The translations under genes were made by a program, and so were the position numbers. Positions 30,897 through 52,978 of a stretch of 64,000 nucleotides of DNA are shown here, piece by piece (within the stretch, counting starts at the first letter, position 1; the number at the start of each line of letters is the position of its first letter). The notes under the pieces are model-generated. The model did no database searches. It saw only the letters and a list, made by a program, of their open reading frames with translations, and was not told the DNA's origin. Location of the stretch: the NCBI GenBank assembly GCA_964651815.1, contig CAZYWG010000009.1, forward strand, positions 601 to 64,600, read 5' to 3'. The stretch comes from an uncultured Gammaproteobacteria bacterium (GTDB lineage Bacteria; Patescibacteriota; Microgenomatia; Levybacterales; GWA1-39-11).

Positions 30897-31610
30897 ATGC
30901 AATCAAGGCTAGCACGAAGATCAGTAAAACAAAGTAAAAATCAGTTGTATATTTCACTCGCGGGGATTGTAGTTGTTTTATTCCTAGCAATCAATTTTGG
31001 GCCTTCTGTAATAGGTGGGGCGGGGAATATAATAGACAAAATTACTGGAAAATCAGGGCTGGATGCAATAGTTAAATCAAACGGACAAGTTCAACCCCCT
31101 ACTCTAGATCCCCTTCCTCAAGCCACTCCAAGTGCAACAATTAATATCAGCGGGAAAACAGATTATCCGAATGGTAATGTTGAGCTTTTTGTAAATAATT
31201 CTTTATCTGATCAAACAAAAGTTGAAACTAATCAGACCTTTAACTTCAAAGAGGTAAATCTAACCTCCGGTAACAACGCTATTAAAGTAAGAATGGTAAT
31301 CAATGACCAAAAAAGTGATTTTTCCGGTGAAGAAGATGTTATGTATACAAAAAATGCACCTAAGCTCGACATTTCAAACCCGCAGGACAAGCAAAATTTT
31401 ACAAAGGCCGACCAGCAAATAGTAGTTAACGGTACCACAGATCCTGATAGTTCTGTGAGAGTTAACGGTTTTGTGGCGATTGTAGACAATCAGGGCAACT
31501 TTTCTTACAATTTAGGCTTAAACCAAGGGGATAATAAAATTGCAATTGTTGCAACCGGTGCATCAGGTCAAACTACTGAGAAAGATCTTACCGTTTCATA
31601 TTCACCGTAG
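30897..31610 (+). CDS. Membrane-anchored hypothetical protein with two Ig-like repeats
   Basis: An N-terminal TM helix and a Pro/Thr linker (QPPTLDPLPQATPSAT) are followed by the two repeats ...ISGKTDYPNGNVELFVNN... and ...VNGTTDPDSSVRVNGFVAIVDNQGNFSY... Confidence 0.5.
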   Translation: MQSRLARRSVKQSKNQLYISLAGIVVVLFLAINFGPSVIGGAGNIIDKITGKSGLDAIVKSNGQVQPPTLDPLPQATPSATINISGKTDYPNGNVELFVNNSLSDQTKVETNQTFNFKEVNLTSGNNAIKVRMVINDQKSDFSGEEDVMYTKNAPKLDISNPQDKQNFTKADQQIVVNGTTDPDSSVRVNGFVAIVDNQGNFSYNLGLNQGDNKIAIVATGASGQTTEKDLTVSYSP

Positions 31611-32787
31611 CACCAATTATGATAAATACCCACGCAAGAATTAAAGTATAGAAAAGAGTGTTAATAAATAGTGAATTAAACATTAATGCGCAAAGAATTG
31701 GAAATGCCGCAACTGACAAAACATTTTTTTCTGAAATTCTAGTCTTCAAGTTTTTCATAAGTTCAAAAATAAAAACTATAAAAGCTATAAATCCTATAAC
31801 TCCAGTTGTCGCAAGAATTAAGAGATACGAATTATCTGTACTGGCTGCAGAATTATTAGGTATATCAGAGATATCGCGACTGTATCCATATCTTAGCTGG
31901 GCATAACGGTATGCACCAAACCCAACACCTAAAATTGGATTTCTTCCAACTATTGAAAGGGCAACTCCTGCCGAGTCAACTCTTTCCAATGCTGAAAAAG
32001 TTCTAAACGGATTTAATCCCTCAACCGAGCTATTTGAAAAAGCCAACAATAGTACCGCAAGAAGTATAATAACAGGATAAATTATTTTGTTTTTATTAGA
32101 TACTATAAGAAGAATCACAATTCCTACTATCATTGATAAGAATGCCGATCTTGAGTAAGTTAAATATATTGAAATAAGTGTAAATAAACCTAAGAAAGCT
32201 AATAACGCAGTCATACGAAGATTCGCCTTCCTAAAATAATAGAGAGTGCTACACGTGATTAAAATTAAAACAAAAACCATAAATATTCCGGCAAAGTTTG
32301 GGTCTAGCATTGTTGAAAAAAGGCGGTATAGATGATCATCCCATCCTGCATAATGTAAATTTTTTAAGTTTGGGTAAAAGAAATATTGCAAAAGACCCAA
32401 AAAAGCAAATAATGCGCCTGATGCTATAAGCTTTAAATGCAAAGTGGAAAGAAATTTTTTGTCCACAAACTGAAGTGCAAATATTAATGAATAATAAGAA
32501 GCCAATCGGATAAAATACAATAATGCGACAAAAAATGATAATCCGTTTAAGTGTGGAATATTAACTACCAATGATAGTAAACATGCAGACAAAAAAATTA
32601 AGAAGTATTTAAAGAGTCCCCTGTTTATTATTTTCTCTTTTTTGAATAATACTTTATAGAAAGTAACCAAAAAAATAATCCCCACTATTATGTCGTGTAT
32701 ATATAAAAACGCACCTGGAACAATGCTGATTCTCGTCAGCACTCCCAGCGGCAAAATGAAAGTCAATAAATTAATTAAGAGGCTCAT
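31588..32787 (-). CDS. Wzy_C-family membrane protein (O-antigen ligase or O-oligosaccharyltransferase-like)
   Basis: About 10 TM helices, with YSRSAFLSMIVGIV followed by a periplasmic loop RNPILGVGFGAYRY...SAASTDNSYLLILATTGVIGF. That loop resembles the Wzy_C R...G.G.G...H.N.YL motif. Confidence 0.55.
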   Translation of the reverse strand: MSLLINLLTFILPLGVLTRISIVPGAFLYIHDIIVGIIFLVTFYKVLFKKEKIINRGLFKYFLIFLSACLLSLVVNIPHLNGLSFFVALLYFIRLASYYSLIFALQFVDKKFLSTLHLKLIASGALFAFLGLLQYFFYPNLKNLHYAGWDDHLYRLFSTMLDPNFAGIFMVFVLILITCSTLYYFRKANLRMTALLAFLGLFTLISIYLTYSRSAFLSMIVGIVILLIVSNKNKIIYPVIILLAVLLLAFSNSSVEGLNPFRTFSALERVDSAGVALSIVGRNPILGVGFGAYRYAQLRYGYSRDISDIPNNSAASTDNSYLLILATTGVIGFIAFIVFIFELMKNLKTRISEKNVLSVAAFPILCALMFNSLFINTLFYTLILAWVFIIIGATVNMKR

Positions 32788-34325
32788 TTTTTGGAATATA
32801 GCTTAACACTTGTCCTAATATTTTGGTATTTTAACTTCCAATTTTGATAATCATTAGGAACCTGTCCCCTTATCAAAACGTAGTTAAAAAAATCCCCTTT
32901 TTTGTACCATGAAGAGTCAACAAATGGAAAATCCGCATAGTAAAGATTGTGGACATTGTAAACTAATACTTTATCACTCTTCTTAATGTTTTTCTTGAAG
33001 TATCCATCTATATCATAAAAATCGCCGAATGAAAAATTTAGGTGGTCCGTCAAAAACTTATCATTTGGTTCAATTCCCAAAATAACTGGGGTATACTTCA
33101 TGTTTGCGGCTCCACGGTAAACTATAGATACAATTGAAACTACAATAATTAGCGCAATTGAATATTTAAGTACAAATCTATCTTTCATGTAGGATAGTGA
33201 AAGTGCTACAAGTACGGAAAACGTGGGAAGATATGCCATAATAAACCTTCCACCACCGCTTTGTGGTGCTAAAAACCAGATGATAAACGAAATTACTGAG
33301 TAAACAACCAAGATCTTACCACCAAGCTTCATTTTTTTTAGACCAAGTAAAACAATTGGAAAGGTTATTAAATACACCGGTGAGATTGGATCGGCGCTGA
33401 AAAGAAAATTCAAAAAATTTGAAAAATGAAAATCCGGCGAAACTGGATAAATACCACTAAAAAACGGGTAGAAAGGGTTTTTTGTTGAAACGTAAGAGAA
33501 TATAAACCAAGGAAGTGGAACTATCAAAGATATAATCACATATAGAAAAGCGTGTTTTATGGACTTTCCAAAAAAGAGCGCCAGAAGTAAGAAAGTTGCA
33601 ATATCAAGTCCTGAAAAAAGCTTTGTTGTTATGGCAAGACCAAGACATATCGATGAAAAAATCAGGAACCTCACGTTTTTTTTCTCTATATAGATCAAAA
33701 AATAGAAAAGGGCAAAAATTTCAAAAAAAGTCCTACCAAGGTCAACGTATGCCGTGATTGACTGCCATCCAACTACTAAGTTCGAGTAGAAAATAACAAT
33801 TGCAAGTAACGATAGCTTTGGTGAAATAAATTTTCTACTTAACTTATAAATTAGTATTAACGTTCCTAATCCAAAAAGAAAGTGAATAAATTTAGCACCG
33901 GTTACAAAACCCGTTACCAAAACGGGAATATATAACATTTCAACAAGTTTTGGCATGTCAGAATAATAAAAAAGTCCGCCTGAAATGTGAAATATTTTTC
34001 CTTCTTGTAGAAAGATTTTGGGAAGCGTTAAGTGGTACCATAAAGCATCAAATCCAGTCTCAGGGCCTAATACACCAATAAGATTAACTAATATTTGTAC
34101 TAAAACGATTCCTAGAAGAAATTTTTCGAGAGGGGTAAGATCTTTGAGCCACTTTTTAATATTTCCAAAAACTGATATAGAGAAATTTTTCCATATAAGA
34201 ATTGTCACAAGTGTTACAAATATAAATGTGAGTGCTAATATATTTACTGTAGTTAAGGCATGAATTATACCAAGGAAGAAAATTACATAAGAGTATAATC
34301 CAATTAATAACGGCACTAAAAACAT
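32784..34325 (-). CDS. GT-C fold membrane glycosyltransferase (PMT/ArnT-like)
   Basis: More than 10 TM helices. The first periplasmic loop reads GPETGFDALWYHLTLPKIFLQEGKIFHISGGLFYYSDMPKLVEMLY, carrying the acidic and PPL-like motifs. Confidence 0.5.
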   Translation of the reverse strand: MFLVPLLIGLYSYVIFFLGIIHALTTVNILALTFIFVTLVTILIWKNFSISVFGNIKKWLKDLTPLEKFLLGIVLVQILVNLIGVLGPETGFDALWYHLTLPKIFLQEGKIFHISGGLFYYSDMPKLVEMLYIPVLVTGFVTGAKFIHFLFGLGTLILIYKLSRKFISPKLSLLAIVIFYSNLVVGWQSITAYVDLGRTFFEIFALFYFLIYIEKKNVRFLIFSSICLGLAITTKLFSGLDIATFLLLALFFGKSIKHAFLYVIISLIVPLPWFIFSYVSTKNPFYPFFSGIYPVSPDFHFSNFLNFLFSADPISPVYLITFPIVLLGLKKMKLGGKILVVYSVISFIIWFLAPQSGGGRFIMAYLPTFSVLVALSLSYMKDRFVLKYSIALIIVVSIVSIVYRGAANMKYTPVILGIEPNDKFLTDHLNFSFGDFYDIDGYFKKNIKKSDKVLVYNVHNLYYADFPFVDSSWYKKGDFFNYVLIRGQVPNDYQNWKLKYQNIRTSVKLYSKK

Positions 34326-34330
34326 TTTAA

Positions 34331-35839
34331 TTAAGTCTTGAAAACTATAAAAACTTTATTTTTAAAAACTTCTTTTTGCTTTTGTATAAATCTGGATAAC
34401 TTTGATTCATTTAGGTAATCGTTTTGAACTATTATATACTTAACTTGTTTGTTTTTAACTTCTGTAAGAATTACATCATCAGAATATTGATGCCAAAGCG
34501 GAGGAAAATAAATTATATCACTGGAGGGGTCCCGTCTCTCAAGAATAAAATATAGTTCAGGATAATAAGGGTACGCAAAAACATAGTCATTTTTTTGGGT
34601 TCTTGAATTTATGAAATTTGCGAGAGACATTATACCGTCTGCAGTTATCTTGTCAGTCTGAATTCCTTTTGTCCTTGGAAGATTTATAAAAGTATTTTGT
34701 GCGCTATAAGGCGGATGATAGCGATAATACTCACGGAAAAGAGTAAGGTAAAAACCTATCATGATCATTAAAGATATCATTAGAATGGCAAGTATATTCT
34801 TTTTTTGGTTGCTAATAAAAATTACCATTGCCAAAATAATGCTTCCCCAAAATGGATATACATGCAACAATTCGCTATTTGGGTAAATATAAGTAACAAA
34901 TCCCACAAGAGGAACTATAAACACTGACAGCAATTTCCAATTCTTATCTTTTAAAAATCTCCAAATAACAAAAAATGCAAAAATATAAGGTAAATAATAC
35001 GGTAACAGTTTAAGAATACCTGCGGGTTGTAAAATATAAGACAGAGGGGGATATGTAAAACCAAATTGAGTTGAGAATTTTCTGCTAAAATTTATAAACA
35101 TTAAGAGTCCAACAATATTGTCTTTCAAAAAAAAATAGTAAATCCAGAAAAACGACAACATCAATAATACTGAATCTAGGACTAGTAGGTTTTTTATTCT
35201 CTCAGACAGCTCTAATTTCTTTGAAAAAAAAACTAAAAAATTTATAACTAATATGAAGCCTAGACCTAAATTCTGGCGTACAGAAAATGATAAGGCAAGA
35301 AGCGTTCCAATTATGATTAGGTATATAAAACTCTTTTTACTTCTCGAATCGATCCAAGAGACAAAAACATATACTAGAATTTGAGAAATTAAAACCTCTG
35401 GCCAAACAGCAAGTGGAATATTAATCAATGGATACCCAAACGCTACAATTCCTAAAAAAGAAAGCAATATTATTTTAAAAGACGTCAGCTTTAGTATATT
35501 GAGGATTAAAAAAGTAAAACAAACAACAAGCGAACATACCAAAAGATTTAGACACCTCCCCACAATTATTGAAAATCCGAATACTTTATAAAGTAGCGCC
35601 AATAGGTAAAAATAGGCCGGGGTATATTGAAGCGCAAAATCTTTATACGGAATTTCTCCCTTTGCTATCCTTTCTGCTGCGTGCAATGTATATCCTTCGT
35701 CAAATAGATCAAGACCTTTGTTTGCAAAATAAAGGTAATAGAAAAATGCGGCAACAATAAGCGCTACTTCAAACAATAAATATTTTTTTGTTTTAACTAC
35801 AGATTTAAAAAGTGCTTTGGGGTCACTAAATGATATCAT
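34331..35839 (-). CDS. GT-C fold membrane glycosyltransferase (PMT/ArnT-like)
   Basis: The first loop reads GLDLFDEGYTLHAAERIAKGEIPYKDFALQYTPAYFYLLA, matching FDE.RY...G...PPL.YW of ArnT/PMT. At least 10 TM helices. Confidence 0.55.
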   Translation of the reverse strand: MISFSDPKALFKSVVKTKKYLLFEVALIVAAFFYYLYFANKGLDLFDEGYTLHAAERIAKGEIPYKDFALQYTPAYFYLLALLYKVFGFSIIVGRCLNLLVCSLVVCFTFLILNILKLTSFKIILLSFLGIVAFGYPLINIPLAVWPEVLISQILVYVFVSWIDSRSKKSFIYLIIIGTLLALSFSVRQNLGLGFILVINFLVFFSKKLELSERIKNLLVLDSVLLMLSFFWIYYFFLKDNIVGLLMFINFSRKFSTQFGFTYPPLSYILQPAGILKLLPYYLPYIFAFFVIWRFLKDKNWKLLSVFIVPLVGFVTYIYPNSELLHVYPFWGSIILAMVIFISNQKKNILAILMISLMIMIGFYLTLFREYYRYHPPYSAQNTFINLPRTKGIQTDKITADGIMSLANFINSRTQKNDYVFAYPYYPELYFILERRDPSSDIIYFPPLWHQYSDDVILTEVKNKQVKYIIVQNDYLNESKLSRFIQKQKEVFKNKVFIVFKT

Positions 35840-35930
35840 GTTTATAAATGCGCTCTTGACAGAAGATATACTAAATAAATAAATAGAATTGCTAAACTCC
35901 AGATTACATACATCACTTTAGGAATTTTTT

Positions 35931-36689
35931 TCACATCTCATTCCTCCACAGTAAAAAGAGTTTGCTTCTCACTAAAAATGAATGCAAAGACATGAACAGT
36001 GCAAAAACCAAACCCTCAATCCCATCCAAAAAACCTAACTTGAGAATATAGTTTTGAATAAATTTTGCTTTCGTATACAAAACTATAGAAAAAACTGAAG
36101 ATGTAACGCCTTTATTTTTCAATTCTCGAGCTCTTAATGTTGAGTAAAAATCAATTTCTTTTAAGAATTCCGCCGTAGTTTGGTGTGGGTAATGTGTTAA
36201 CTCGTGCTTTAACTCTCCTATGCGTCCTTTTATGTTCCAAACTTCATGAACATCTCCGCTCCATTTTCCAGATTCCTTTCCGCCAAGCCTTACTAACTTT
36301 ATATTTCCGGTTTCCCCGTGTTTTAACTTTTTACCCCACAAAACATCACTTCTTTTAACAAAAAACCCATTGTAATCTGTACTATTAATTCGTTCTTTAA
36401 CTTCATCAATTAAATTGCTTGATAAGCGCTCGTCAGCGTCTATAAATAGAACCCAGTTGTTTTTTGCTTTCTCAAGTCCAAAATTTCTTTGGGAGGAAAA
36501 ATTTCCATCAAGTTTTCTTTTAAATATTTTGACAGTTTTGAAATTTAATGTTTTTATGACTTCAAGCGTACGGTCTTCTGAATAATCGTCAATTACGACA
36601 ATTTCTGATATTTCAGATAAGCTCTCCAAACAATCCAAGATATTTTTTTCCTCGTTCTTAGTAAGAATTACAACAGATAGTTTAACCAT
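35931..36689 (-). CDS. Glycosyltransferase family 2
   Basis: MVKLSVVILTKNEEKNILDCLESL...VVIDDYSEDRT...FIDADERL (DxD). Confidence 0.8.
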   Translation of the reverse strand: MVKLSVVILTKNEEKNILDCLESLSEISEIVVIDDYSEDRTLEVIKTLNFKTVKIFKRKLDGNFSSQRNFGLEKAKNNWVLFIDADERLSSNLIDEVKERINSTDYNGFFVKRSDVLWGKKLKHGETGNIKLVRLGGKESGKWSGDVHEVWNIKGRIGELKHELTHYPHQTTAEFLKEIDFYSTLRARELKNKGVTSSVFSIVLYTKAKFIQNYILKLGFLDGIEGLVFALFMSLHSFLVRSKLFLLWRNEM

Positions 36690-36692
36690 TCA

Positions 36693-38921
36693 TTATTTTA
36701 CCATGATTTGATCATTTATAACTTTTATTCTTTCGCTACCCTCAATTACATATATTTTAGTTTTGACAGGAAAAGTGATAGGCGGATTATTACCAAGCCA
36801 CCAAGTTAAATACTCATAATTTGCGGTTGAACTGGCAAATTGTTGTCCTGGGCCTTTAAAAACCAGATTGTATCCCTGCCCTTTTGCAATTTTTAAAATT
36901 TGCTTTGATGATTCAATTCTGCCCGCAAGTCCATATAGAGTAGTATTATTCGAACTTACAAAAATAAACAAATTTAAGAAAACTATCGATAATATATAAA
37001 ATGTAGAGATGAAGACTTTAAACTTATTTACAGCTAGAACAAACAAAATAAGTAATATTGGGAATATCATTGGTAAATACGCGTCAGATGGCGTTTTTAT
37101 AGCAAAATACCCAACCATAGAAATTAATCCGGTCAAAAAAATCACTGATTCCGCTGACTCGAATTTATCACGAATAAAAATCCAGCCAGCCGAGACAAGA
37201 CTTAAGACCAACAACGCAAGTGAAATTACATAATTAGGAAATAAGAGATTTTCGTACTTTTCAACAAAAAAATTAAAAACAGACACATAGCTATGATTAT
37301 CCATGCTACTTCTCCTAAAGATTCCAACAAATTGAAGAATTTTATAACCTATCCAAAGTACAAACTTCAAAGTCTGGGGAAATCCGTGTCCTAAATCATA
37401 AAAAATAAATGGCGTCATGGGAGTTACAATACTAAGGAGTGAAAATAAAGCAAATTTTTTATTAACAACCCCCTTCACATATTTTTTCTTTCTTGCAAAA
37501 CCTAATGTGATATAGAAAACAATGACAGCCAAAAAAATTGAAGTTGCAATCTCAAAGTTGTAAAGAATTACCACTAGCATCAATACAACTGGGAGGGCTT
37601 TTACATTTAATTTTACAACCCACTGGAGCATAAAAAAAACAATTAGTAGTGTAAACAGTGGAATTGGACTTGTATGATACGGCATTTTGGAATACTCTAC
37701 TAAAATAGGCGAGGTAGCATAGACTAGTGAAGCAAAAATACCGACTTTTTTTGTGAAGAAAGTAGAACCTATCTTGTAAATTACAAAAATTGCCAAACAA
37801 TCAAGAAGTGCAGCTAAATATGCGCCTGAAACCGGATTAAAATTTGAGACTAGTAAAGCTCCAGCAAGTAAATACGTCCAAAAAGCACCTTGATGCAGCC
37901 ATGGATGACTCGAGGCAATTCCAACCAGAGGAAACTTACCATGGACAATAATATCTCTTGCCGATAAATAAAACCACGCTTGATCACCAATAAAAGTCAT
38001 GTTGCGAGAAATATCAAATAGTCTCAAAAATAAACCCGTTAAGATTACAAGTGAGAGGATCACGCTATATGTTGAAATAGATAATATAAAAGATACAATT
38101 ACAGCCCAGGTCAACCCGTAATTTTTTTTTAAATAGTAAAAGCGGCTTTCGTTAAATATTTTGCTTATATTTTTGTCACTTTTCTTTGTACTCTCCCCCC
38201 ACGCATGGTACACTTTAGCGTTAGAAAGCATGACTATTTTGTATCCAAGCACTTTTACTCTTTTGCACAAATCGTGTTCTTCAAAATACAAAAAAAAATT
38301 CTCATCAAAACCTCCTATTTTTTGAAAAATTATCTTTCTAATTATGAATGCAGACCCTGGAACGCTATCCACTTCCCGCACAGATTGCTTCATCCAATCA
38401 CTTCTCCAATATTTTTTAGAAATTGGGTTACCAGGAAAAATTTTATTAATAAGTGAAAATGCAAAAATGGCGCTTATCGGAGTTAATGTTCCAAACCCTT
38501 GGAGTGGATAAGGCTTGTCATTAATATCATAAAGTGTAGGGGCAGCTATTGCAGTATTTTTATTTCTTTCTAAATTATTTAACAATAATTTTATACTATC
38601 ATTCCGGATTATAGTGTCCGGATTTAAGAAAAATAAATAATCCCCTGATGCAGACTTCGAACCAACATTACATCCGTTAGCAAACCCACGGTTTGTATTA
38701 GGTATGTAGATCGTCTTTGGGAATCGTTGTTTTAAGTCTTTGGAAATACTTTTTACTTCATCATTATCTACTACAATAACTTCAAGCTTTATATTCTCAC
38801 CAGTACTTTTATAGATTGAATTGATACAAGTTAACAAAAGGTTCTTAACATGATAGTTAACTATTATTATAGAAATTCTAATCTTAGATTCACTTTTCAT
38901 GTTATTTCTTCTTGTAAACAA
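36693..38921 (-). CDS. Fusion protein: N-terminal GT2 domain plus C-terminal GT-C (PMT/ArnT-like) membrane domain
   Basis: The N-terminus ISIIIVNYHVKNLLLTCINS...VIVVDNDEV...FFLNPDTI is GT2. The C-terminus has 12 or more TM helices with GDQAWFYLSARDIIVHGKFPLVGIASSHPWLHQGAFWTYLLA. Confidence 0.65.
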   Translation of the reverse strand: MFTRRNNMKSESKIRISIIIVNYHVKNLLLTCINSIYKSTGENIKLEVIVVDNDEVKSISKDLKQRFPKTIYIPNTNRGFANGCNVGSKSASGDYLFFLNPDTIIRNDSIKLLLNNLERNKNTAIAAPTLYDINDKPYPLQGFGTLTPISAIFAFSLINKIFPGNPISKKYWRSDWMKQSVREVDSVPGSAFIIRKIIFQKIGGFDENFFLYFEEHDLCKRVKVLGYKIVMLSNAKVYHAWGESTKKSDKNISKIFNESRFYYLKKNYGLTWAVIVSFILSISTYSVILSLVILTGLFLRLFDISRNMTFIGDQAWFYLSARDIIVHGKFPLVGIASSHPWLHQGAFWTYLLAGALLVSNFNPVSGAYLAALLDCLAIFVIYKIGSTFFTKKVGIFASLVYATSPILVEYSKMPYHTSPIPLFTLLIVFFMLQWVVKLNVKALPVVLMLVVILYNFEIATSIFLAVIVFYITLGFARKKKYVKGVVNKKFALFSLLSIVTPMTPFIFYDLGHGFPQTLKFVLWIGYKILQFVGIFRRSSMDNHSYVSVFNFFVEKYENLLFPNYVISLALLVLSLVSAGWIFIRDKFESAESVIFLTGLISMVGYFAIKTPSDAYLPMIFPILLILFVLAVNKFKVFISTFYILSIVFLNLFIFVSSNNTTLYGLAGRIESSKQILKIAKGQGYNLVFKGPGQQFASSTANYEYLTWWLGNNPPITFPVKTKIYVIEGSERIKVINDQIMVK

Positions 38922-41562
38922 AAGCTAGAGTTGCCTCTCCAGCTTTTACGCTATATACCAGCCGATAATCTCGTTTTATTGGAGAATCGTCAAACCCATC
39001 ACGAATTATGTGATACCAATTAACGACAACATAATCATATTTATTTTTTTTTGACCAGTCAGAGTATTTTAAGTTATTAAATTTAGGAAATGTATGTTCG
39101 GGGGAAAGTGCTAGACCTACCTCTGCTCCCCTTTTTGCGTTTACTTTTAAGTAATACCCAGCCTCTCGTTCTCCCTGACCCCACCATCCAATTTGAAAAA
39201 GGTTGTGCTTATAAACATTCCCAGTCCCTCCAACAAGCTCGTTAAAATAATCTAAGTAATAAGGTTTTATTTGCCAAATTGAAATGAAAAGATATATCGC
39301 AAGAAAAAAACCAAGGGATAACTTTATTAGATTTCCTTTTGACAACTTTTTTGTTATATATTCAAACCCAAGTGCAGCAAGTAGCGCAATCGCCGGGTAT
39401 ATTTCTATAATGTATCTTAGACCGTGCTGTCGCCAAGAGTAGATGGAAAGACTAAACGGGACTAAAAACCATAGAAGAACTAGATAGTAATAAATAGTTT
39501 TCGTCTTAAATGTTTTATACACTCCGGCAAAGAATAAACCTAGTATTAAAACCGGAATTGTAATTAAAAAATAAACTATATAATAATAATCGGGAACCAT
39601 CGTTAAACGACCAAAAAAGATCTCGGGAGGTGAAAGCGTTATTAACCACGGCTTAGGGGAGAATTGGACACTCCAGGTTTTTTGATTAATCTCTTGAATT
39701 TCCTTCAAATGAAAAATTGATTGAGGCCAAATTACCACGAAAGTCAAAATGCTAATTAAAATGATTGCAGTTAATGCTTTCACCCTACTCTTTAAAAAAA
39801 CTTTTTTTACACTTTGTTTAGTTATTCGATATTGCAAGTAAAATATCACGATAAGAAGTGGAAAAAGAAGAATGTCGGTTTGTTTTGCCTGAAGTGCAAT
39901 TCCGGTTAGAATACCCGCAAGAATAACTCTTCTTATAGTAAATTTTTCAACAATCAAGATGTAACTATAAATCGCCAAAGGATAAACCAGAATTTTAAGG
40001 CTCTCCGTTGTGACAAGCTGAGAAAGGCCGATTGATGTAGGAAGCATTGAGAGAATAATTCCGGAAATGACGCCAACTGTTGGTGAAAATATTCTCCAGC
40101 CAATTAGCGCAACCATAACAACCCCCAAGGAAAACATAATTGCCGATAAAATCCTTGCATAAGTTAGATCATAGCGGAAAACAGGATCCCTGTTTTTTGT
40201 AAATTTTTCTATATCGAACCTTCCAGCCAATCCGTATAGGTATTTCACAAGTGGAGGGTGATTATAAGTACTAATAAAATAATTGTTATTAAAATCCCCT
40301 TTTGAAATAAGTTGATCTAGCTTATAACCCGGAGCAAGAAATTCCATCTCATCCCACGTACGTCCTATTTGGTCAATCGTCCACATTCGGAGCGACATAG
40401 AAAAAACAAAAATTATAACTAGGATACCAATTTTCAAAGCATTATTAGAATTAACTTTTGGAGTTTTTAAATTCAAAGCATTCACAAGGATAGATTCGAT
40501 TCTATTTACTGACATATCCCAAGCCCAATTCAAAACAACATGTTTTCTTGCTTCACTTCCTATCTTCGTTCTCAACTTATTATTAGAAAGAAGTTGAGCT
40601 ATTTTTCCAACCAAAATCTCTGCATTATTATCTATTAATAAACCGGTCTTGCCATCTATAACAGTTTCCTTATACCCTCCTTCGTTAAGCGCTATAACAG
40701 GCACACCACATGCTGCAGCCTCGAGCGGTATTAGTCCGAACGGTTCATCTCTCGATAGTGCAATTACTATTTTTGACCTTTGATACAAATTTCTTAACTT
40801 TTCATCTGATGTCCAATTACTACCCGTAAAGTGAAAATTTACTTTTATTTTCTTTTTTGTTAAATCTATTGCATTTCTCAACAAATCATATCCATCAAAA
40901 TTATCTTTTGACCCAATATACAAAACGTCGATGTCTTTTTTTGTGTTAGTTGGTAGGAAAAAATCAGTCTCGACTCCCAAATATGCTACCCTGCTCTCCA
41001 GTCCATAAGCTTTTTTTATGTTTTTTTGTGTAAAGAGAGAATTTGCCAATATCAGGTTAGTCGAGAAAATATTTTTTTTGTCGATAACTTTTCTAATATA
41101 TCGGGCCCCCTTCCCGTATATTTGCTTTAGTATCGGCAGGTTTTCATTTAATTTTAGCTTTGGTTCATAAACCATTCTTAGTATTTCTTCACAATAATAA
41201 ATTGTCATTGTTTTTAAATGCCTAAGAATAAATGGCGCCTGAGTATATTTTGATGGGTGAATAAAAATAATGTCATAGTTTTTGTTGTCGATCTCATATG
41301 CAATTTTCCTGTGAAGTCTGTAAAGCTGGTAAAGTTCCACTGTATCTTTATATAATCTTGTTTTCCAATTTCCACCACTCCATTCTTTGGGATTAAAGTG
41401 ATATTTGAAAACGTTGCTGAAAAAAATACGTTCCGAACTTTCATCTTTTTCATCAACTATATATAAATCAACAAGATTATTTTTTTTAAGTCTTTTTGCA
41501 ATCTCATTTACAGCTCGCCTAGCCCCCCCATTATGTAGCTCGTGGAAAATAGCAATTTTCAT
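38902..41562 (-). CDS. Fusion protein: N-terminal GT4 (GT-B) domain plus C-terminal GT-C (PMT family) membrane domain
   Basis: The GT4 part has EPFGLIPLEAAACGVPVIALNEGGYKETV (E-x7-E). The membrane part has RTWDEMEFLAPGYKL...YFISTYNHPPLVKYLYGLAG, closely matching the PMT/GT39 DE...HPPL.K motif. Confidence 0.7.
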   Translation of the reverse strand: MKIAIFHELHNGGARRAVNEIAKRLKKNNLVDLYIVDEKDESSERIFFSNVFKYHFNPKEWSGGNWKTRLYKDTVELYQLYRLHRKIAYEIDNKNYDIIFIHPSKYTQAPFILRHLKTMTIYYCEEILRMVYEPKLKLNENLPILKQIYGKGARYIRKVIDKKNIFSTNLILANSLFTQKNIKKAYGLESRVAYLGVETDFFLPTNTKKDIDVLYIGSKDNFDGYDLLRNAIDLTKKKIKVNFHFTGSNWTSDEKLRNLYQRSKIVIALSRDEPFGLIPLEAAACGVPVIALNEGGYKETVIDGKTGLLIDNNAEILVGKIAQLLSNNKLRTKIGSEARKHVVLNWAWDMSVNRIESILVNALNLKTPKVNSNNALKIGILVIIFVFSMSLRMWTIDQIGRTWDEMEFLAPGYKLDQLISKGDFNNNYFISTYNHPPLVKYLYGLAGRFDIEKFTKNRDPVFRYDLTYARILSAIMFSLGVVMVALIGWRIFSPTVGVISGIILSMLPTSIGLSQLVTTESLKILVYPLAIYSYILIVEKFTIRRVILAGILTGIALQAKQTDILLFPLLIVIFYLQYRITKQSVKKVFLKSRVKALTAIILISILTFVVIWPQSIFHLKEIQEINQKTWSVQFSPKPWLITLSPPEIFFGRLTMVPDYYYIVYFLITIPVLILGLFFAGVYKTFKTKTIYYYLVLLWFLVPFSLSIYSWRQHGLRYIIEIYPAIALLAALGFEYITKKLSKGNLIKLSLGFFLAIYLFISIWQIKPYYLDYFNELVGGTGNVYKHNLFQIGWWGQGEREAGYYLKVNAKRGAEVGLALSPEHTFPKFNNLKYSDWSKKNKYDYVVVNWYHIIRDGFDDSPIKRDYRLVYSVKAGEATLAFVYKKK

Positions 41563-41677: not shown

Positions 41678-42943
41678 ATGAATTCAAAAGACAACTTTAA
41701 AATGATTGGGGAATACAAATTTTATTCTAATTGCAGATTTTGTAATTCAATACTCACTTCAGTTATTAATCTAGGTTTCTTACCACTCGCCGGAGGGTTT
41801 CTTAAAACTAAAAATCAATTCAACAAGGAAAAACTATATCCACTAGCACTAGGTTTTTGTCAAAATTGTAAACTTCTTCAAACAATGCAAGTTGTTTCTG
41901 CTGATAAGTTGTTTAAAAACTATTTCTATTTCTCATCTAAAATTAACACTCTTACTAAACATTTCAACTATATGGCAAATCATTTTAATGATCTGGGAAA
42001 GCATCCTACAAAAAAAATTGTTGTTGAAATTGGTAGTAATGATGGAGCATTTCTAAAAGCATGTTTAAATCTGGGAATTCAAGCTGTAGGAGTTGACCCT
42101 GCGACTAACGTAGTTAGACCGCTTCTTAAAGAACTTCCTATAATAAACGAGTATTTTACAACAAAAACAGCAAAGACAATTGTGAAGAAATATGGACATG
42201 CAGATATTATATTCAGTTCAAACACGTTAGCACATATTGAGGACATGCATGAAGTTTATAAAGGAATTAATTTTCTTTTAAAAGACGATGGAATGCTTGT
42301 TTTTGAAAATCATTACTTGGGAAATTTAATAAGTCAAATGCAATACGACATGATATATCATGAACATCAATATTACTACTCTTTGAATGCTCTCGTGAAC
42401 TATCTTGCACAATTCAACATGGAAATTTTTGATGTTAAGTTTATTCCAATCCATGCAGGGTCGATAAGTGTATATGTCCAGAAAAAGGGATCCGGACGGA
42501 AAGTAAAAAAAATAGTACTCGATACACTTAAGATCGAAAAAAAAGTAGGTCTTACCTCCATTAAAACTTTTACCAACTACAATAAAAGAATCGCAAAATC
42601 AAAAGTTGAATTAATCAAATTGTTAACGTCGCTCAAAAAAAAGGGTAAAACTATCGCAGGGTATGGCGCATCGGGACGGGGTACAATACTTATGAGTTAT
42701 TGCGGAATCGATAAGACCTTTATCGACTATGTGATAGATGACGCTCCCGCAAAACAAGGCGCATATACTCCAGGGAATCACTTACTTATTAGACCGTCTG
42801 ACGCCCTAAAAGAAAAAAATAGACCGGACTATGTTCTACTCTTTGCTTGGTCTTTTTACAAGGAGATTGAGGAAAAGAATAAAGATTACATAAAAAATGG
42901 AGGGAAGTTTATAATCCCACTTCCTAAAGTTAAAATTGTATAA
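41678..42943 (+). CDS. NDP-hexose C-methyltransferase (TylC3/EvaC-like) with an N-terminal zinc ribbon
   Basis: CRFCNS...CQNCKLLQ zinc ribbon, the SAM fold VVEIGSNDGAF, the IYHEHQYYYSLNAL motif and a C-terminal GYGASGRGTILMSY...VIDDAPAKQG domain. Confidence 0.65.
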   Translation: MNSKDNFKMIGEYKFYSNCRFCNSILTSVINLGFLPLAGGFLKTKNQFNKEKLYPLALGFCQNCKLLQTMQVVSADKLFKNYFYFSSKINTLTKHFNYMANHFNDLGKHPTKKIVVEIGSNDGAFLKACLNLGIQAVGVDPATNVVRPLLKELPIINEYFTTKTAKTIVKKYGHADIIFSSNTLAHIEDMHEVYKGINFLLKDDGMLVFENHYLGNLISQMQYDMIYHEHQYYYSLNALVNYLAQFNMEIFDVKFIPIHAGSISVYVQKKGSGRKVKKIVLDTLKIEKKVGLTSIKTFTNYNKRIAKSKVELIKLLTSLKKKGKTIAGYGASGRGTILMSYCGIDKTFIDYVIDDAPAKQGAYTPGNHLLIRPSDALKEKNRPDYVLLFAWSFYKEIEEKNKDYIKNGGKFIIPLPKVKIV

Positions 42944-43809
42944 TGAAAAAAATTTTCCCCAAAACTTTAGTGCTCGGATCAACAGGAATGGTAGGAAGAA
43001 CCATCTTTGATTATTTGGCTAATAAATACCCTTTAATGATTTTAGGCTCTTCAAGAACTCCCCAAAAAAAATCTAATATATTTTTGTTCGAGACCAAAGA
43101 CACTTTCGAAAGATTAAAACTAAAAACGTTAAAAGTTAAATACATTGTTAATTGCATCGGAATTCTGAATGGGAGCAAGAACCCAGAAGAAATGAAAATT
43201 GTAAATTCAAAATTTCCTCATAAACTTGAGAAATTTTGCAAGCAAAAAAAAATTAAACTTATTCATGTCTCAACAGATGCGGTATTTGATGATAATTCGA
43301 AAATAAACTTTGAAGATTCAACTACTAATCCATCTGATTATTATGGAAAGACAAAGCTTAAAGGTGAAATAAATAAAGGAATAAATATAAGATCCTCATT
43401 TATTGGTTTTGACCCTCTTGAAAAAAAGGGTTTACTTGAACTTGTTCTAAAAAGCAAAGATGAAGAAATAATTGGATTTACTAATCAGATCTGGACAGGA
43501 TGCACCACTTTACAATTTGCTATATTTATTGAAGACCTAATTGGTAAAAACCTTTATGATAAATTTGTCGAAAACACTAATATTATTCACTTTGCACCTC
43601 TTGGTCCCGTCAGTAAGTACAAAATTCTAAAAACATTTTCTGAAATCGTTCGACGAGGAAAATTAACAAAAGGGAAAGGAGTAAAAAGAACCAGAATTTT
43701 AAAAAGCAAAATAATTGAAGAAAAACTGCTTAAACGTTATAATAACGATCTTAACAACGCTCTAAATAAGTTAATTAAGTTTTATCCAAATTATGAAATT
43801 AAATATTAA
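42943..43809 (+). CDS. dTDP-4-dehydrorhamnose reductase-like (RmlD family) NDP-sugar 4-ketoreductase
   Basis: LVLGSTGMVGR Rossmann fold, HVSTDAVFDD and NPSDYYGKTKLKGE (a Y-x3-K motif) match RmlD. Confidence 0.65.
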   Translation: MKKIFPKTLVLGSTGMVGRTIFDYLANKYPLMILGSSRTPQKKSNIFLFETKDTFERLKLKTLKVKYIVNCIGILNGSKNPEEMKIVNSKFPHKLEKFCKQKKIKLIHVSTDAVFDDNSKINFEDSTTNPSDYYGKTKLKGEINKGINIRSSFIGFDPLEKKGLLELVLKSKDEEIIGFTNQIWTGCTTLQFAIFIEDLIGKNLYDKFVENTNIIHFAPLGPVSKYKILKTFSEIVRRGKLTKGKGVKRTRILKSKIIEEKLLKRYNNDLNNALNKLIKFYPNYEIKY

Positions 43810-44995
43810 AAAGAAGAAGTTAGTTTTTGTACTTGGAATCAGGCCAGATATAATCCGAGCCGTTTTGATAATGAGATTTCTTGAAAAAGAAAAGGATTTA
43901 GAAGTAATCTTTGTTTGGTCAGGTCAACATTATTCAGATAATTTAAAGGGTATTTTCTTTAGGGAATTTAAAATCAGAAAAGCTGATTATGAACTTGGTT
44001 GCAAAGGTGAAACAGACGTGGAAATCGCAGGAGAACTTATTAAAAAACTTTACGTTTTGCTTGATAGGATTAAGCCTGATGCGGTTGCATTCTTAGGGGA
44101 TACAAATACTACAGCCGGGTGTATTGCACCTGCAATGCTTAATATTCCAATTATTCACATTGAGGGGTGCTGGCATTCATACGACTGGCGAATGCCTGAA
44201 GAGAAATATAGAACAATTTCAGATGACCTTGCCGACGTTATATATACTTATGAAGAAGAGTACAAAAAAAGAGGAATTGCGCAAGGACTTAATCCACGGA
44301 ACATAGTTGTTACCAGAAATCCTATTGTTGACATTCTTAATGAGTTTTATTTTAAACAAAAGAAAAGATTAGAGAAAATGGCGGATAAAAAATTCTTTGA
44401 TTCTCGCGGAATTGAAGATGGAAAGTACTACTTAATTACTTGTCACAGGAGAGAAAATGTACATATTGATAAGTCCTTTGATGCAATTTTAAATTTTATC
44501 TCGAAAGCACAACTGCATGTTTACTTTCCAGCCAGCTATAGAACGCAAAAAGTAATAAAAGCCAGAAAATTAAAGTTGCCAAGAAACCTTATTTTGGTTG
44601 ATCCAATAGGCTACGAAGAAATATTAATATTAATGACTCACTCAAAAGGTGTATTCACCGATTCAGGTACAATTATTGAGGAAGCAAGCGTTCTAAACAT
44701 TCCGGCCGTACAAATTAGAAAATCAACAGAACGTCCACAAGTTTATGATGTGGGAGGAGCTGTCAAGTTTGACCCGGACAATCCCAAAAAATATACCCCG
44801 GAAATTGTATATAAAAAACTTGAAAAGATAACGGGAACACACTGGAAACACACTCTTGGGGATGGGAAAGCGTCTGAAAGAATTGCAAAAGATATAATTA
44901 AGCGGTTGCGATCTGGCAATCTACGTGGGCATCTCCCTCAAAACAACCATCTTCCTATACAAAGATCTTTTATGGAGGACGGGATAAAAATTTAA
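43793..44995 (+). CDS. UDP-N-acetylglucosamine 2-epimerase family protein (WecB-like)
   Basis: LGIRPDIIRAVLIMRFL, WSGQHY, KPDAVAFLGDTNTTAGCIAPAMLNIPIIHIEGCWHSYDWRMPEEKYR and DSGTIIEEASVLNIPAV. Confidence 0.7.
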   Translation: MKLNIKKKKLVFVLGIRPDIIRAVLIMRFLEKEKDLEVIFVWSGQHYSDNLKGIFFREFKIRKADYELGCKGETDVEIAGELIKKLYVLLDRIKPDAVAFLGDTNTTAGCIAPAMLNIPIIHIEGCWHSYDWRMPEEKYRTISDDLADVIYTYEEEYKKRGIAQGLNPRNIVVTRNPIVDILNEFYFKQKKRLEKMADKKFFDSRGIEDGKYYLITCHRRENVHIDKSFDAILNFISKAQLHVYFPASYRTQKVIKARKLKLPRNLILVDPIGYEEILILMTHSKGVFTDSGTIIEEASVLNIPAVQIRKSTERPQVYDVGGAVKFDPDNPKKYTPEIVYKKLEKITGTHWKHTLGDGKASERIAKDIIKRLRSGNLRGHLPQNNHLPIQRSFMEDGIKI

Positions 44996-45441
44996 TCCCA
45001 AATATCCCAATATGAGGCGGTGAAGCGAATATCATCATTTTTTGACTCCTCTAAAGTTCTGTCTGAGAAAAAAATCAACTTTGTGTCTTTTGTTAATGAT
45101 TTAAAACCATTAACATATCCCTTCGGAATATAAAGTATCTCGGGTTTATTTGAGGAAATCAAAAACTTATTCACTTTGCTTTTTTTTGACGGATTCTTCC
45201 AATCGTCAATTCGTACTGCGCCTATCTGGGCTTCCCCAGCAATTGCAAAGACAAATTTTGATTCTTTTTTATGGCCATGCCATGCCCTGACAGTACCTAT
45301 TTTATGGTTTGAGACTACGTAAAATCTTTTTATCCCTGGAAATTTAAAATCATTCACAAAACTTACTATACCTCGCGTGTCTGTTGCTGTATCCCCTTTG
45401 ATTAAAACAGGGCGATCTACAAGAGATTTAAGAATTTTCAT
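44992..45441 (-). CDS. Cupin-fold NDP-sugar isomerase/epimerase (FdtA/WxcM-C or RmlC-like)
   Basis: DTRGIVSFVNDFKFPGIKRFYVVSNHKIGTVRAWHGHKKESKFVFAIAGEAQIG...YIPKGYVNGF has the cupin His/His-Lys pattern of 3,4-ketoisomerases and 3,5-epimerases. Confidence 0.5.
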   Translation of the reverse strand: MKILKSLVDRPVLIKGDTATDTRGIVSFVNDFKFPGIKRFYVVSNHKIGTVRAWHGHKKESKFVFAIAGEAQIGAVRIDDWKNPSKKSKVNKFLISSNKPEILYIPKGYVNGFKSLTKDTKLIFFSDRTLEESKNDDIRFTASYWDIWD

Positions 45442-45446
45442 TTGGA

Positions 45447-46394
45447 TTAAACCTTTATTAAGTGTGTGTTAAATTTAGTCAAAAATGATTGATTTCCATA
45501 ACGTTCATTATTTACATCCTTTATTCTATTTTCTTCGAGCAAACTTTTCAGTTCGTCAATTCCTTGATCTATAGTATATTTTGATTTAAACCCAAGTATT
45601 TTTGTAGCCTTTCCGTTTTTCACTTGATAATTTCTTGCGTCTTCAAACTTCATCTCCTCTGTCACTATTTTGACTTTAGGGAAGTGATCTTTTACTTTCT
45701 TTGACAAATCAAACATGCTGATGTTCTCGCGATTTATGTTGAAAATTCCATTATGAGGTGTATTCACGTTTTCAAAAATTGCATTTGCCGCATCCGTGAC
45801 ATGGAGAAGAGGTCTATATTGTTTTCCTCCAAAAACCCTCAGCAATCCGTCTTTATAAGCTCTAACGGTCATAATATTTACTACAAGGTCGAGCCGTATG
45901 CGTGAAAATTGATCTCCAACACCAAACAATGTACCCAAGCGAAATATAAGCGCATTTTTATTTTTTAAATGCTGCTCTGCTTTAAGCTTTGATGATGCGT
46001 AGACTGAAAGAGGGTTTGTTGTTGATTTTTCATCCAAAAGTAAATCATGAGCACCATATACAGAACACGTTGATGTAAAAATTATTTTCCCATCAAAGTT
46101 ATTTGATAGCCATAAAACACTTTTTTCATTTACGTCAACTGCCACGTCAGGATTGAGCGCACATGCCCCATCCCCTACTAAAGCAGCCAACCACACTACC
46201 ACATCTGCCCACTTTAGTAATTTTTTTAGCTTTGCATGGTCACGGATATCTCCATATATAAAATCTACATCTTTTCTATAACTTTCTTCGTAAAGAAGCG
46301 AATCATAAACTTTTACTGAGTGTTTTGAATTCTTAAGAATATCAGTTAAAGCACCTCCTATATATCCCGCACCACCTGTAATTAATATTTTCAT
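45447..46394 (-). CDS. NAD-dependent nucleotide-sugar epimerase/dehydratase (extended SDR)
   Basis: MKILITGGAGYIGGAL Rossmann motif and the catalytic YASSK (Y-x3-K). Confidence 0.8.
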   Translation of the reverse strand: MKILITGGAGYIGGALTDILKNSKHSVKVYDSLLYEESYRKDVDFIYGDIRDHAKLKKLLKWADVVVWLAALVGDGACALNPDVAVDVNEKSVLWLSNNFDGKIIFTSTCSVYGAHDLLLDEKSTTNPLSVYASSKLKAEQHLKNKNALIFRLGTLFGVGDQFSRIRLDLVVNIMTVRAYKDGLLRVFGGKQYRPLLHVTDAANAIFENVNTPHNGIFNINRENISMFDLSKKVKDHFPKVKIVTEEMKFEDARNYQVKNGKATKILGFKSKYTIDQGIDELKSLLEENRIKDVNNERYGNQSFLTKFNTHLIKV

Positions 46395-46450
46395 AAGTTA
46401 TAATTTTGTACCATATTATAAACAATTATCCTCACGAAGACCAGAAAGTT

Positions 46451-47350
46451 TTATGAAGTGCCAATTTTTTGAAAAGATTTAACATGAAACTTTAGAAACT
46501 CACCTAGGTATGGAATTGGAGAATAATAAAGACAAATGAGTGAGATGATGATTTTTGTGAATAAATTATTTCCACGGGCTATTCTTGCCGCTTCACAAGC
46601 TTTTTTGTAGGCTTCTGACTTAAATTGTTTCAACTCGTGAGGAAATTTTGGATCTTCAAAAATTTTGTTTATCACCTTAATGTGATCCATAGCAGCCCTA
46701 AAACTTCTTCCGGCAATAGTTGCTTGACCCGGGTGCACACGGGATGTTGCTAAATATTTTGGAATTCTCGCAAAATCTCCCAACAAACCTGCCCTCAGCC
46801 AAAAATCATAATCGCTTACATATTTATAATTAACATCACGTCCTTTGAGTTTTTTAAGAATCTCTTTCTTAAAAAAAGCGCTCGCTCCAAGTGGGCAATT
46901 ATGAGATCTGATCATATATTCATAACTAAAGTCCCGAGTTTTAACTCTCTTCATTTCTTTTCCATTTTTGTCAGTAAAGATCCAATCTGAGTAAGCAACA
47001 ATAATCTCAGGATTATATTGCATAAACTTTACAAATTCTCTGATTGCGCCCGGCAACAATGGATCATCCGAATTAACTATACCAATTATGTCCCCATGCG
47101 CCATTTTTAAACCCTTATTTACTGTCCTCACTTCTCCTACATTTTTATGTGACTCGAATGTTATTCTATCTTTATACTTTTCAATTACCTCCTTCGTATT
47201 ATCTGTTGATCCGTCATCAAGCACTATATATTCAATATTTGGATAGTCTTGGTTTAATACGCTTAGTATAGATTCTTCCAGAAAATCTGCGCGGTTATAT
47301 GCAGGAGTTATGACAGTAACAAGTAGATTCTTTCTATCACTTTGTTTCAT
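46451..47350 (-). CDS. Glycosyltransferase family 2
   Basis: LLVTVITPAYNRADFLEESILSVLNQDYPNIEYIVLDDGSTDNT and NSDD (DxD). Confidence 0.8.
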   Translation of the reverse strand: MKQSDRKNLLVTVITPAYNRADFLEESILSVLNQDYPNIEYIVLDDGSTDNTKEVIEKYKDRITFESHKNVGEVRTVNKGLKMAHGDIIGIVNSDDPLLPGAIREFVKFMQYNPEIIVAYSDWIFTDKNGKEMKRVKTRDFSYEYMIRSHNCPLGASAFFKKEILKKLKGRDVNYKYVSDYDFWLRAGLLGDFARIPKYLATSRVHPGQATIAGRSFRAAMDHIKVINKIFEDPKFPHELKQFKSEAYKKACEAARIARGNNLFTKIIISLICLYYSPIPYLGEFLKFHVKSFQKIGTS

Positions 47351-48573: not shown

Positions 48574-48675
48574 GTGTTTCTTTTCAGGTTTTAGTATATC
48601 ATGGCCAGTCTAGAGTGTTTTGGAAAGGTAAAGCATGATCATCTTGTTTTTTTATAAATTGCTGATATATAATCT

Positions 48676-49920: not shown

Positions 49921-49999
49921 TATCCTTTTTTTGAAGAAATGTTAATATGAATGTAAACGGATATAAACTACATTAATCGAGACTGTTCTTTCTTACTTT

Positions 50000-50761: not shown

Positions 50762-50771
50762 TTATCATTTA

Positions 50772-52751: not shown

Positions 52752-52977
52752 TTTTTACAATTTTCGCGCTCACTATGAAAATAACAATTGGAATGAAAAG
52801 TAAAACAAAGAAAAAAAGTGTATCAAAGTAAAAAGGGTATCCAAAATACTGAGAGAATCCTACAAGTTTATCGTTACCTATTTCCGGTGGTAATAACAAC
52901 GCCTTAATTATTTTAAATCCCATTAACAAAGCCAAATTTGTAAAAATTGAAAGGACTATGCTAAAAAGTAAAACCAG
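52741..52977 (-). CDS. Small 2-TM membrane protein (78 aa), hypothetical
   Basis: The internal Met of track ORF 52741..53055 starts 2 nt after the stop of the upstream 862-aa gene. It encodes two hydrophobic helices (MELEFMKKDKLVLLFSIVLSIFTNLALLMGF...). Confidence 0.3.
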   Translation of the reverse strand: MVLLFSIVLSIFTNLALLMGFKIIKALLLPPEIGNDKLVGFSQYFGYPFYFDTLFFFVLLFIPIVIFIVSAKIVKNEE

Positions 52978-52978
52978 C

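Follow-up and report, generated by a model that had tools for sequence, protein, structure and literature searches.

Leloir glycosyltransferase domains fused to PMT-like GT-C modules in a probable envelope-glycan island of a Levybacterales genome

A stretch of 64,000 nucleotides from contig CAZYWG010000009.1 (assembly GCA_964651815.1, GTDB order Levybacterales), hereafter the window, encodes three large proteins in which a nucleotide-sugar-dependent (Leloir) glycosyltransferase (GT) domain is joined to a polytopic membrane glycosyltransferase of the GT-C class. We refer to them as A and C, which carry a GT2 domain, and B, which carries a GT4 domain. With moderate confidence, we read the three as bifunctional, two-sided enzymes of one conserved Wzx/Wzy-type envelope-glycan or glycoprotein island, and not as self-feeding modules that pair a donor synthase with its consumer. 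Their inner halves do not appear to be the donor-making type, so the proteins look like joined pathway neighbours and not like self-feeding machines.

Three fusions and their membrane modules

All three genes lie on the minus strand and run without an internal stop: A at 36693..38921 (a 742-aa open reading frame (ORF) starting from TTG), B at 38902..41562 (886 aa) and C at 52979..55567 (862 aa). Translation of A probably begins at M8 of the ORF, an ATG at 38900 that lies 1 nt beyond the stop of B, giving a protein of 735 aa; the database protein P0105, also 735 aa, is an exact match. Pfam finds both domain types in each protein, in agreement with the preliminary description of this DNA, which had proposed the three fusions. 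No stop or frameshift separates the halves, and the same fusions recur in other genomes. An identical 886-aa B is found on the NCBI contig of the metagenome-assembled genome and in two independently assembled runs (SRR9179562 and SRR9179560), and B has 11 full-length fused orthologues (859-894 aa, 35-63% identity). The best 120 matches to A are nearly all 704-771 aa in length (two are longer and one is partial; 42-52% identity), and the best 120 to C are nearly all 836-883 aa (one partial; 44-63% identity). The GT4::GT-C fusions of two related loci (L005 and L006) contain distinct linkers of 10-25 residues. The three fusions are genuine, and not artefacts of assembly or frameshift.

By profile similarity, the membrane halves of A, B and C belong to the PMT/PMT_2-type GT-C superfamily. 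PMT_2 matches B with 41.1 bits (aa 466-612; cutoff 26.1) and PMT matches C with 29.9 bits (aa 415-557; cutoff 22.7), while the PMT_2 match of A (24.0 bits, E 4.9e-5) is slightly below the gathering score of 26.1. We consider this sub-threshold match genuine because hhalign comparison of the GT-C family profiles gives a probability of 98.5% for A with B and 97.5% for B with C. Precomputed PF13231 matches are present in most A orthologues, and the B profile matches yeast Pmt2 (6p25) at 6.6e-8. The “GT39 family” label that databases give to stand-alone B-type proteins is an automatic annotation.

The cytoplasmic GT-A domain of A (38169..38900, minus strand) is supported by Pfam, conservation, an AlphaFold2 (AF2) model and Foldseek; Glycos_transf_2 matches with 66 bits over aa 17-143, and GT2-like families extend to aa 251. 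Its GT-C module (36696..38114, minus strand) is supported by the PMT_2 match, hhalign, conservation and secondary structure. Counted from M8, the AF2 model (predicted local distance difference test 92.2, predicted template modelling score 0.87) and layout place the GT-A domain at 1-232, a Lys/Arg-rich helix at 245-261 and a kinked hydrophobic first transmembrane helix (TM1) at 263-294 (ORF aa 270-301), followed by the first outer loop, about 12 more helices and a small alpha/beta domain at 678-735. B consists of the GT4 domain (aa 1-365; 40468..41562, minus strand), a 10-residue linker, and a PMT-like GT-C module (aa 373-886; 38905..40446, minus strand; supported by PMT_2, the Pmt2 profile match and conservation) that comprises TM1 at 373-397, a first loop with the motif GRTWDE, the GT-C body and a C-terminal soluble domain. 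The GT2 module of C (54626..55567, minus strand; assigned from Pfam/NCBIfam, conservation, AF2 and hidden Markov models (HMMs)) is predicted to contain the GT-A domain at 1-205, an interface helix at 209-225 and hydrophobic helices at 231-253, 256-281 and 286-314, and its GT-C module (aa 318-862; 52982..54616, minus strand) TM1 at 326-346, the first loop, the GT-C body and an alpha/beta domain at 744-861 (the corresponding AF2 scores are 88.6 and 0.85).

Each GT-C half contains an acidic first loop. In A, this loop (ORF aa 302-345, nt 37887-38018) includes the conserved segments FIGDQxWFYLSARD and SSHPWLHQG, and the acids D306 and D316 (M8 numbering) of the motif GDQxW...RD are at least 90% conserved. 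In B, the WDE of the loop occupies aa 403-405 (nt 40348-40356) with D404-E405 at least 90% conserved, and in C the motif MDEWH is invariant (aa 358-362, nt 54482-54496). These acidic motifs and many further GT-C residues show little or no variation across 45-62 homologues. In A and B, the chain makes one hydrophobic pass from the Leloir domain to the first loop, and a Lys/Arg-rich segment comes before TM1. We infer that in A, B and C the Leloir domain is cytoplasmic and the first GT-C loop lies outside. Placement of the two domains on opposite sides of the membrane, an expectation of the preliminary description, would follow for A and B from their single pass and depends in C on one helix, 286-314, not spanning (discussed below).

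Identity of the cytoplasmic domains

It had been suggested that the N-terminal domains might be donor synthases of the Dpm1/GtrB type that supply their own GT-C halves. Fold and profile comparisons do not support this, and place none of the three fused Leloir domains in that type: the GT2 of A resembles polypeptide GalNAc-transferases (ppGalNAc-T), B carries a GT4, and the GT2 of C is nearer to PcManGT and PgaC than to dolichyl-phosphate-mannose synthase (DPMS). The method can recognise the Dpm1 type, since two positive controls, the sister-genome protein P0021 and the window protein segment 61593-62330, match DPMS along the full length of the domain, at 1e-17 to 1e-18.

For A, the best PDB matches in Foldseek are ppGalNAc-T2, WrtF and GlfT2, and DPMS, GtrB and ArnC are absent from the top 50. 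Its profile can be aligned end to end with ppGalNAc-transferases alone; the alignment with DPMS is limited to the generic N-terminal half. Family HMM scores are 33.6 bits for WcaE, 27.6 for PgaC, 24.8 for WcaA, 14.3 for ArnC and about zero for GtrB, and there is also an NCBIfam rhamnosyltransferase match. The N-terminal domain of B is, from its Pfam matches and motifs, a retaining glycosyltransferase of the GT4 family and GT-B fold: Glycos_transf_1 matches with 96.5 bits (aa 235-341; cutoff 26.4) and Glyco_transf_4 weakly (aa 12-200), and the nearest solved relatives are WbaZ-1 and BshA. We know of no GT4 enzyme that makes polyprenol-monophosphate sugars. For C, Glycos_transf_2 matches with 94.5 bits (aa 6-130), and the further Pfam and NCBIfam matches are to the synthase-like membrane GT2 group (PF13632, GT21, PgaC, NodC and HpnI). 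The Glycos_transf_2 matches of both A and C exceed the gathering score of the model, and both domains have a GT-A fold. The HMM of the C family matches PgaC across the GT-A and interface region (50.8 bits) and ArnC and GtrB at the N-terminus only, and GtrB, ArnC and DPMS rank well under PcManGT, WrtF, K4CP and HAS.

Inspection of catalytic motifs, for which the preliminary description had expected DxD or EX7E, gave a clean result in B and conserved variants in the two GT2 domains. The EX7E of B (E273...E281, nt 40720-40746) is invariant in 14 of 14 GT4-bearing homologues, as is G12-G13. At the DxD position A has an invariant N-P-D, which keeps the second Asp, together with E207/E208/D210 (EExD) and H232 as candidate catalytic residues. 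C has D-A-G, in which D93 is invariant and the second Asp is replaced by Gly, with an invariant N-E-D (177-179) at the presumptive catalytic-base position and a further motif, FFRFAxGD.

One protein of the window is of the Dpm1 type. The gene at 61593..63026 (plus strand) encodes a 477-aa protein, identified by Pfam, PDB and HMM matches, in which a DPMS/Dpm1-like GT2 is fused to a C-terminal S-adenosylmethionine-dependent methyltransferase. Its GT2 matches PDB 5mlz (3.2e-18) across the entire GT-A domain, with GtrB and ArnC next, and scores 136.6 bits against the HMM (Bx_gt2). No other GT2 of the window is of the Dpm1 type; this one is the sole candidate there for a polyprenol-phosphate-sugar synthase and, at 30-33% identity, the nearest kin in the window to the GT2 that is fused to B-type GT-C modules in sister genomes. 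In P0021, which is such a fusion, the PDB matches of the GT2 are confined to DPMS (at 1.5e-17 across the full domain), ArnC and GtrB. Three small GT2s, at 35931-36689 and 46451-47350 in the island and at 380-1087 outside it, were considered as stand-alone GtrB/DPMS enzymes and rejected; their similarity is to chondroitin synthase, GmaR or SunS, with no specific likeness to DPMS.

Partner exchange, proposed mechanism and alternatives

Each half of A, B and C was given its own HMM, and 83 related loci were scanned. The B-type GT-C is fused to a GT4 in the window and in L005 and L006. In L012 (an ATGA stop/start), L014 (a 17-nt overlap) and L016 the GT4 is encoded by a distinct gene that lies just ahead of it and overlaps it. 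In at least 11 loci the B-type GT-C stands alone, and the GT4 gene is found immediately upstream of gene A. The stand-alone GT4 of L004 (5439-6551), in the same cluster, is 46% identical over 367 aa to the N-terminus of B. In 11 loci (L002, L007, L015, L018-L024 and L045) the B-type GT-C is fused to a DPMS-like GT2, and in L009 and L017 such a GT2 precedes it as a separate gene. The concept of a donor-consumer fusion, while not borne out for A, B or C, therefore finds support in sister genomes, in P0021 and others.

B-type GT-Cs at 55-63% identity are found alone, GT4-fused or GT2-fused. The DPMS-fused P0021 is 60% identical to the GT-C of B, while the GT4-fused P0011 and P0062 are 44% and 35% identical to B over their full length, and in a neighbour-joining tree of the GT-C domain, built without support values, the three states interleave. 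Interleaving and identity values together indicate that fusion and fission recur and that the partner follows gene adjacency. Among 50%-identity representatives there are about 80 clusters of stand-alone GT4 orthologues, about 45 of stand-alone GT-Cs and about 4-6 of GT4::GT-C fusions. Myxococcota and archaeal homologues with long N-termini were examined as further glycosyltransferase fusions and rejected, as they have PA14 or GNAT domains instead. PA14 carbohydrate-binding domains occur in distant B-type homologues at L057, L073, L079 and L042, variously labelled Myxococcales, Proteobacteria (L079) and Clostridia, and a Methanocellaceae homologue (L056) has a C-terminal GNAT acetyltransferase. 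Judged from these domain arrangements, the B-type GT-C family readily gains fused domains.

A is fused in essentially every genome. C is usually fused and is split in L026, L007, L038 and L039, where the break falls exactly in the interval aa 314-318; in L026 another gene separates the halves. L039 encodes an autonomous 316-aa C-type GT2 that ends after helix 286-314, and the stand-alone C-type GT-Cs of L007, L026 and L038 begin with a Lys/Arg-rich N-terminus followed by TM1.

For the A/B/C pathway we infer membrane sidedness, substrates and reaction order as follows. The cytoplasmic domains would use nucleotide sugars to extend lipid-linked, probably polyprenol-(di)phosphate-linked, intermediates of a Wzx/Wzy-type pathway. 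After export, the GT-C modules would act outside, where their acidic first loops would face, on donors that are polyprenol-phosphate sugars from a separate DPMS-like GT2, in the window presumably the protein at 61593-63026. In A and B the cytoplasmic domain would be tethered to TM1 of the GT-C by a short linker, while the GT2 of C would be seated in the membrane by its own helices. The fusions may have originated from adjacent, translationally coupled genes, and their role may be to anchor and co-localise enzymes of one pathway, at fixed stoichiometry, in a small genome.

Several observations weigh against this reading as pathway neighbours. Among the ORFs scanned in the 64-kb window, no initiating phosphoglycosyltransferase was found and none matched PF04138, the GtrA-type flippase family, so the outline of the pathway is incomplete. 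The near-universal fusion of A hints at a functional coupling tighter than anchoring alone. Fold and HMM ranking may be compatible with a GT2 outside the Dpm1 type that acts on polyprenol phosphate, in C especially; PcManGT, the closest solved relative of the C GT2, was reportedly described in 2020 as dolichyl-phosphate dependent. The number of membrane passes is a further difficulty in C, where the stretch from the GT-A domain to the outer loop contains four hydrophobic helices, TM1 included. Opposite sides call for an odd number of passes, so that a membrane-spanning helix 286-314 (nt 54626-54709) would leave the GT-A domain on the same side as the acidic GT-C loop. This helix is hydrophobic, with invariant P291, Q294, D298 and G304. 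Its Lys-rich loops on both sides argue that it does not span, but its low hydrophobic moment does not favour this; it probably does not span.

The self-feeding alternative, in which each N-terminal domain makes a polyprenol-phosphate sugar that its own GT-C uses after flipping, is unlikely overall and most plausible for C. There the GT2 brings membrane helices of its own and is similar to GT2s that are membrane-bound or use lipid acceptors (PcManGT, GT21, HpnI and PgaC). The 11 loci that join a B-type GT-C to a real DPMS-like GT2 indicate that donor-consumer fusions are selected in this lineage, and the island itself contains no stand-alone GtrB-like gene. However, the same family rankings that bring C close to PcManGT put GtrB, ArnC and DPMS well below it and below WrtF, K4CP and HAS, the GT2 of A is ppGalNAc-T/GlfT2-like with negligible ArnC and GtrB scores, and B has a retaining GT4. 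The fusion partner of B is moreover swappable or absent while the GT-C stays at about 60% identity, and the GT4 gene is usually found beside A and not beside the B-type GT-C.

We also rate as improbable an assembly-then-transfer scheme, in which the cytoplasmic domain completes a polyprenol-diphosphate oligosaccharide with its final sugar and the fused GT-C, acting after Wzx in the manner of an oligosaccharyltransferase (OST) or ligase, transfers the product. Relatives of the A GT2 (GlfT2, WrtF and the NCBIfam rhamnosyltransferase) act on lipid-linked glycans, Wzx and Wzy_C genes are present in the island, and A is constitutively fused, all of which would fit. The GT-C halves, however, are PMT_2/PMT-like with a DE-type first loop, a family that takes monophosphate-monosaccharide donors; ALG12 and Pmt4 outscore OSTs, and the OST hallmarks WWDYG and DK/MI are not evident, though no search was aimed at them.

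Dpm1-type catalytic domains without transmembrane helices of their own need membrane partners, and several different partners can be fused to the B-type GT-C, as would be expected if the GT-C halves were catalytically dead anchors for soluble glycosyltransferases. The near-invariance of the first-loop acids and of many other GT-C residues across the 45-62 homologues, and the conservation of the same GT-Cs as stand-alone genes, make this very improbable. There is next to no likelihood that the fusions are adjacent genes run together through loss of a stop codon or through a frameshift introduced in sequencing or assembly: the overlapping reading frames of the split versions in L012, L014 and L016 do place split and fused states one indel apart, but the identical fused B in three independent assemblies, the existence of at least ten diverged fused orthologues of B and of more than 100 each for A and C, and the distinct linkers of L005 and L006 argue against it.

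A more speculative proposal, with a small chance of being right, is that C and the DPMS-like::GT-C relatives of B are self-contained trans-membrane units in which a lipid-linked sugar, formed at the cytoplasmic GT2 site, would pass along the protein's own helices to the fused GT-C site, with no separate flippase. It rests on the finding that the scanned ORFs of the island encode no GtrA-type protein. If true, it would bear on how polyprenol-phosphate sugars are flipped, where the flippase is a long-standing unknown (PMC11727336).

The island and its relation to known systems

The window belongs to a genome of the candidate phyla radiation (CPR). Its GC content is about 30-40%, and homologues are named Candidatus Levybacteria, Levyibacteriota, Roizmanbacteria, Microgenomates or Patescibacteria. 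Many GTDB representative records with Levybacteria-like clusters (loci L013-L023 and others) are titled “uncultured Gammaproteobacteria bacterium”, which appears to be a placeholder or erroneous taxonomy.

Beyond A, the B-A operon continues on the minus strand with a GT2 of 252 aa (35931-36689), a polytopic 502-aa protein (U502, 34331-35839), a stand-alone PMT_2 GT-C of 513 aa (32784-34325) and a Wzy_C protein of 399 aa (31588-32787). Intergenic spacing in this remainder (31588..36689) is -4 to +91 nt, and the gene order is kept in L001 and L005. The interval between B and C (41678..52751) encodes two sugar C-methyltransferases, an RmlD-like reductase, a UDP-GlcNAc 2-epimerase, an FdtA/RmlC-like protein, an epimerase, a GT2 of 299 aa, a Wzx-like flippase (47347-48573), a methyltransferase and a polytopic 659-aa protein (U659), and these genes are kept in L002 and L004. 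The Wzx-like protein, a Polysacc_synt_3 match, is the sole flippase candidate among the scanned ORFs. The island as a whole, with its nucleotide-sugar modification genes, Wzx, Wzy_C and extra GT-Cs, is syntenic in L001, L002 and L004, and besides A, B and C the conserved island takes in a 613-aa membrane protein and a PTPS_related membrane protein.

Among the sugar genes are those at 41678-42943 (plus strand), 48676-49920 (plus), 44992-45441 (minus) and 42943-43809 (plus). The occurrence of two sugar C-methyltransferases alongside FdtA/RmlC-like and RmlD-like genes suggests that the product of the island is a branched-chain (C-methylated) deoxysugar, which would be unusual in a reduced CPR genome.

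Four more large polytopic proteins are encoded in the island, at 34331-35839 (minus), 50772-52751 (minus), 55701-57542 (plus) and 57545-59329 (plus). U502 and U659 gave no Pfam match at a threshold as loose as E=1, and hhalign did not link them to the GT-C profiles of A, B or C; their synteny is kept in L001 and L002. The 613-aa protein shares 25% identity with the unfused PMT_2 GT-C (32784-34325), and the 594-aa protein is PTPS_related. In total, as many as nine GT-C-like or related enzymes may be encoded in the island. A small conserved ORF at 52741-53055 (minus), between gene C and the 659-aa membrane-protein gene, has no Pfam match and has a counterpart of about 80 aa in L002 (5749-5991). 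Near the window start is an unfused divergent pair: a 235-aa GT2 at 380-1087 (minus), whose best family match is the GT2 half of C (C_gt2, 81 bits), and a 503-aa polytopic protein at 1122-2633 (plus), distant kin of the GT-C half of A (hhalign 96.5%).

In the literature searched, no fusion of a GT-A or GT-B domain to a GT-C is described, in line with the preliminary view that the architecture is uncharacterised. It is common in databases, which hold thousands of such proteins labelled simply “glycosyltransferase”; the annotation of the Joint Genome Institute already gives both domains for some. GT-Cs and their cytoplasmic partner glycosyltransferases are normally separate, and matching partners is hard. 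The fusions, together with their split and swapped versions, assign to a single envelope-glycan pathway one GT4, GT2s of three kinds and PMT-like GT-Cs of three families, in an uncultivated, reduced-genome lineage with uncharted surface chemistry. They also carry a caution, that a GT2-GT-C fusion alone does not imply a donor synthase paired with its consumer. The most useful by-product may be the DPMS-like::PMT-like fusions among the relatives of B, which offer a single-polypeptide system for following a donor from synthesis to use.

Functionally nearest are the three-component systems of GtrA, GtrB and a Gtr-type GT-C, ArnC/ArnT, CsbB/YfhO and actinobacterial Ppm1/Pmt, which likewise place a cytoplasmic GT2 and an outward-acting GT-C in one pathway with polyprenol carriers. 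The GT-C halves of B and C resemble the GT-Cs of three-component systems in their PMT/ArnT fold and acidic first loop. Those systems, however, consist of separate proteins with a GT2 of the Dpm1/GtrB/ArnC type, whereas A, B and C are covalent fusions with ppGalNAc-T-like, GT4 and PcManGT/PgaC-like domains, and the Gtr-type systems have a GtrA-like flippase, unlike the window ORFs scanned. Ppm1 of Mycobacterium tuberculosis (Rv2051c) is a two-domain polyprenol-phosphate-mannose synthase in which a Dpm1-type domain is fused to an anchoring polytopic membrane domain, but that domain is Lnt/CN-hydrolase-like and not a GT-C, unlike in A, B and C. Compared with PcManGT (PDB 6yv7), HAS, PgaC, GT21 and HpnI, C has DAG for DxD and FFRF for QxxRW, lacks an N-terminal transmembrane helix and continues into a GT-C. 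In comparison with GT39 enzymes (yeast Pmt1/2/4 and actinobacterial Pmt), A, B and C are without a MIR domain and have a small C-terminal alpha/beta domain and an N-terminal Leloir glycosyltransferase. Closest of all in sequence are the DPMS-like GT2::PMT-like GT-C proteins of sister Levybacteria (P0021, 758 aa), encoded in the same island, whose GT-C is orthologous to that of B (41-60% identity over about 510 aa); these fit the idea of a donor synthase joined to its consumer, whereas B carries a GT4 in that position.

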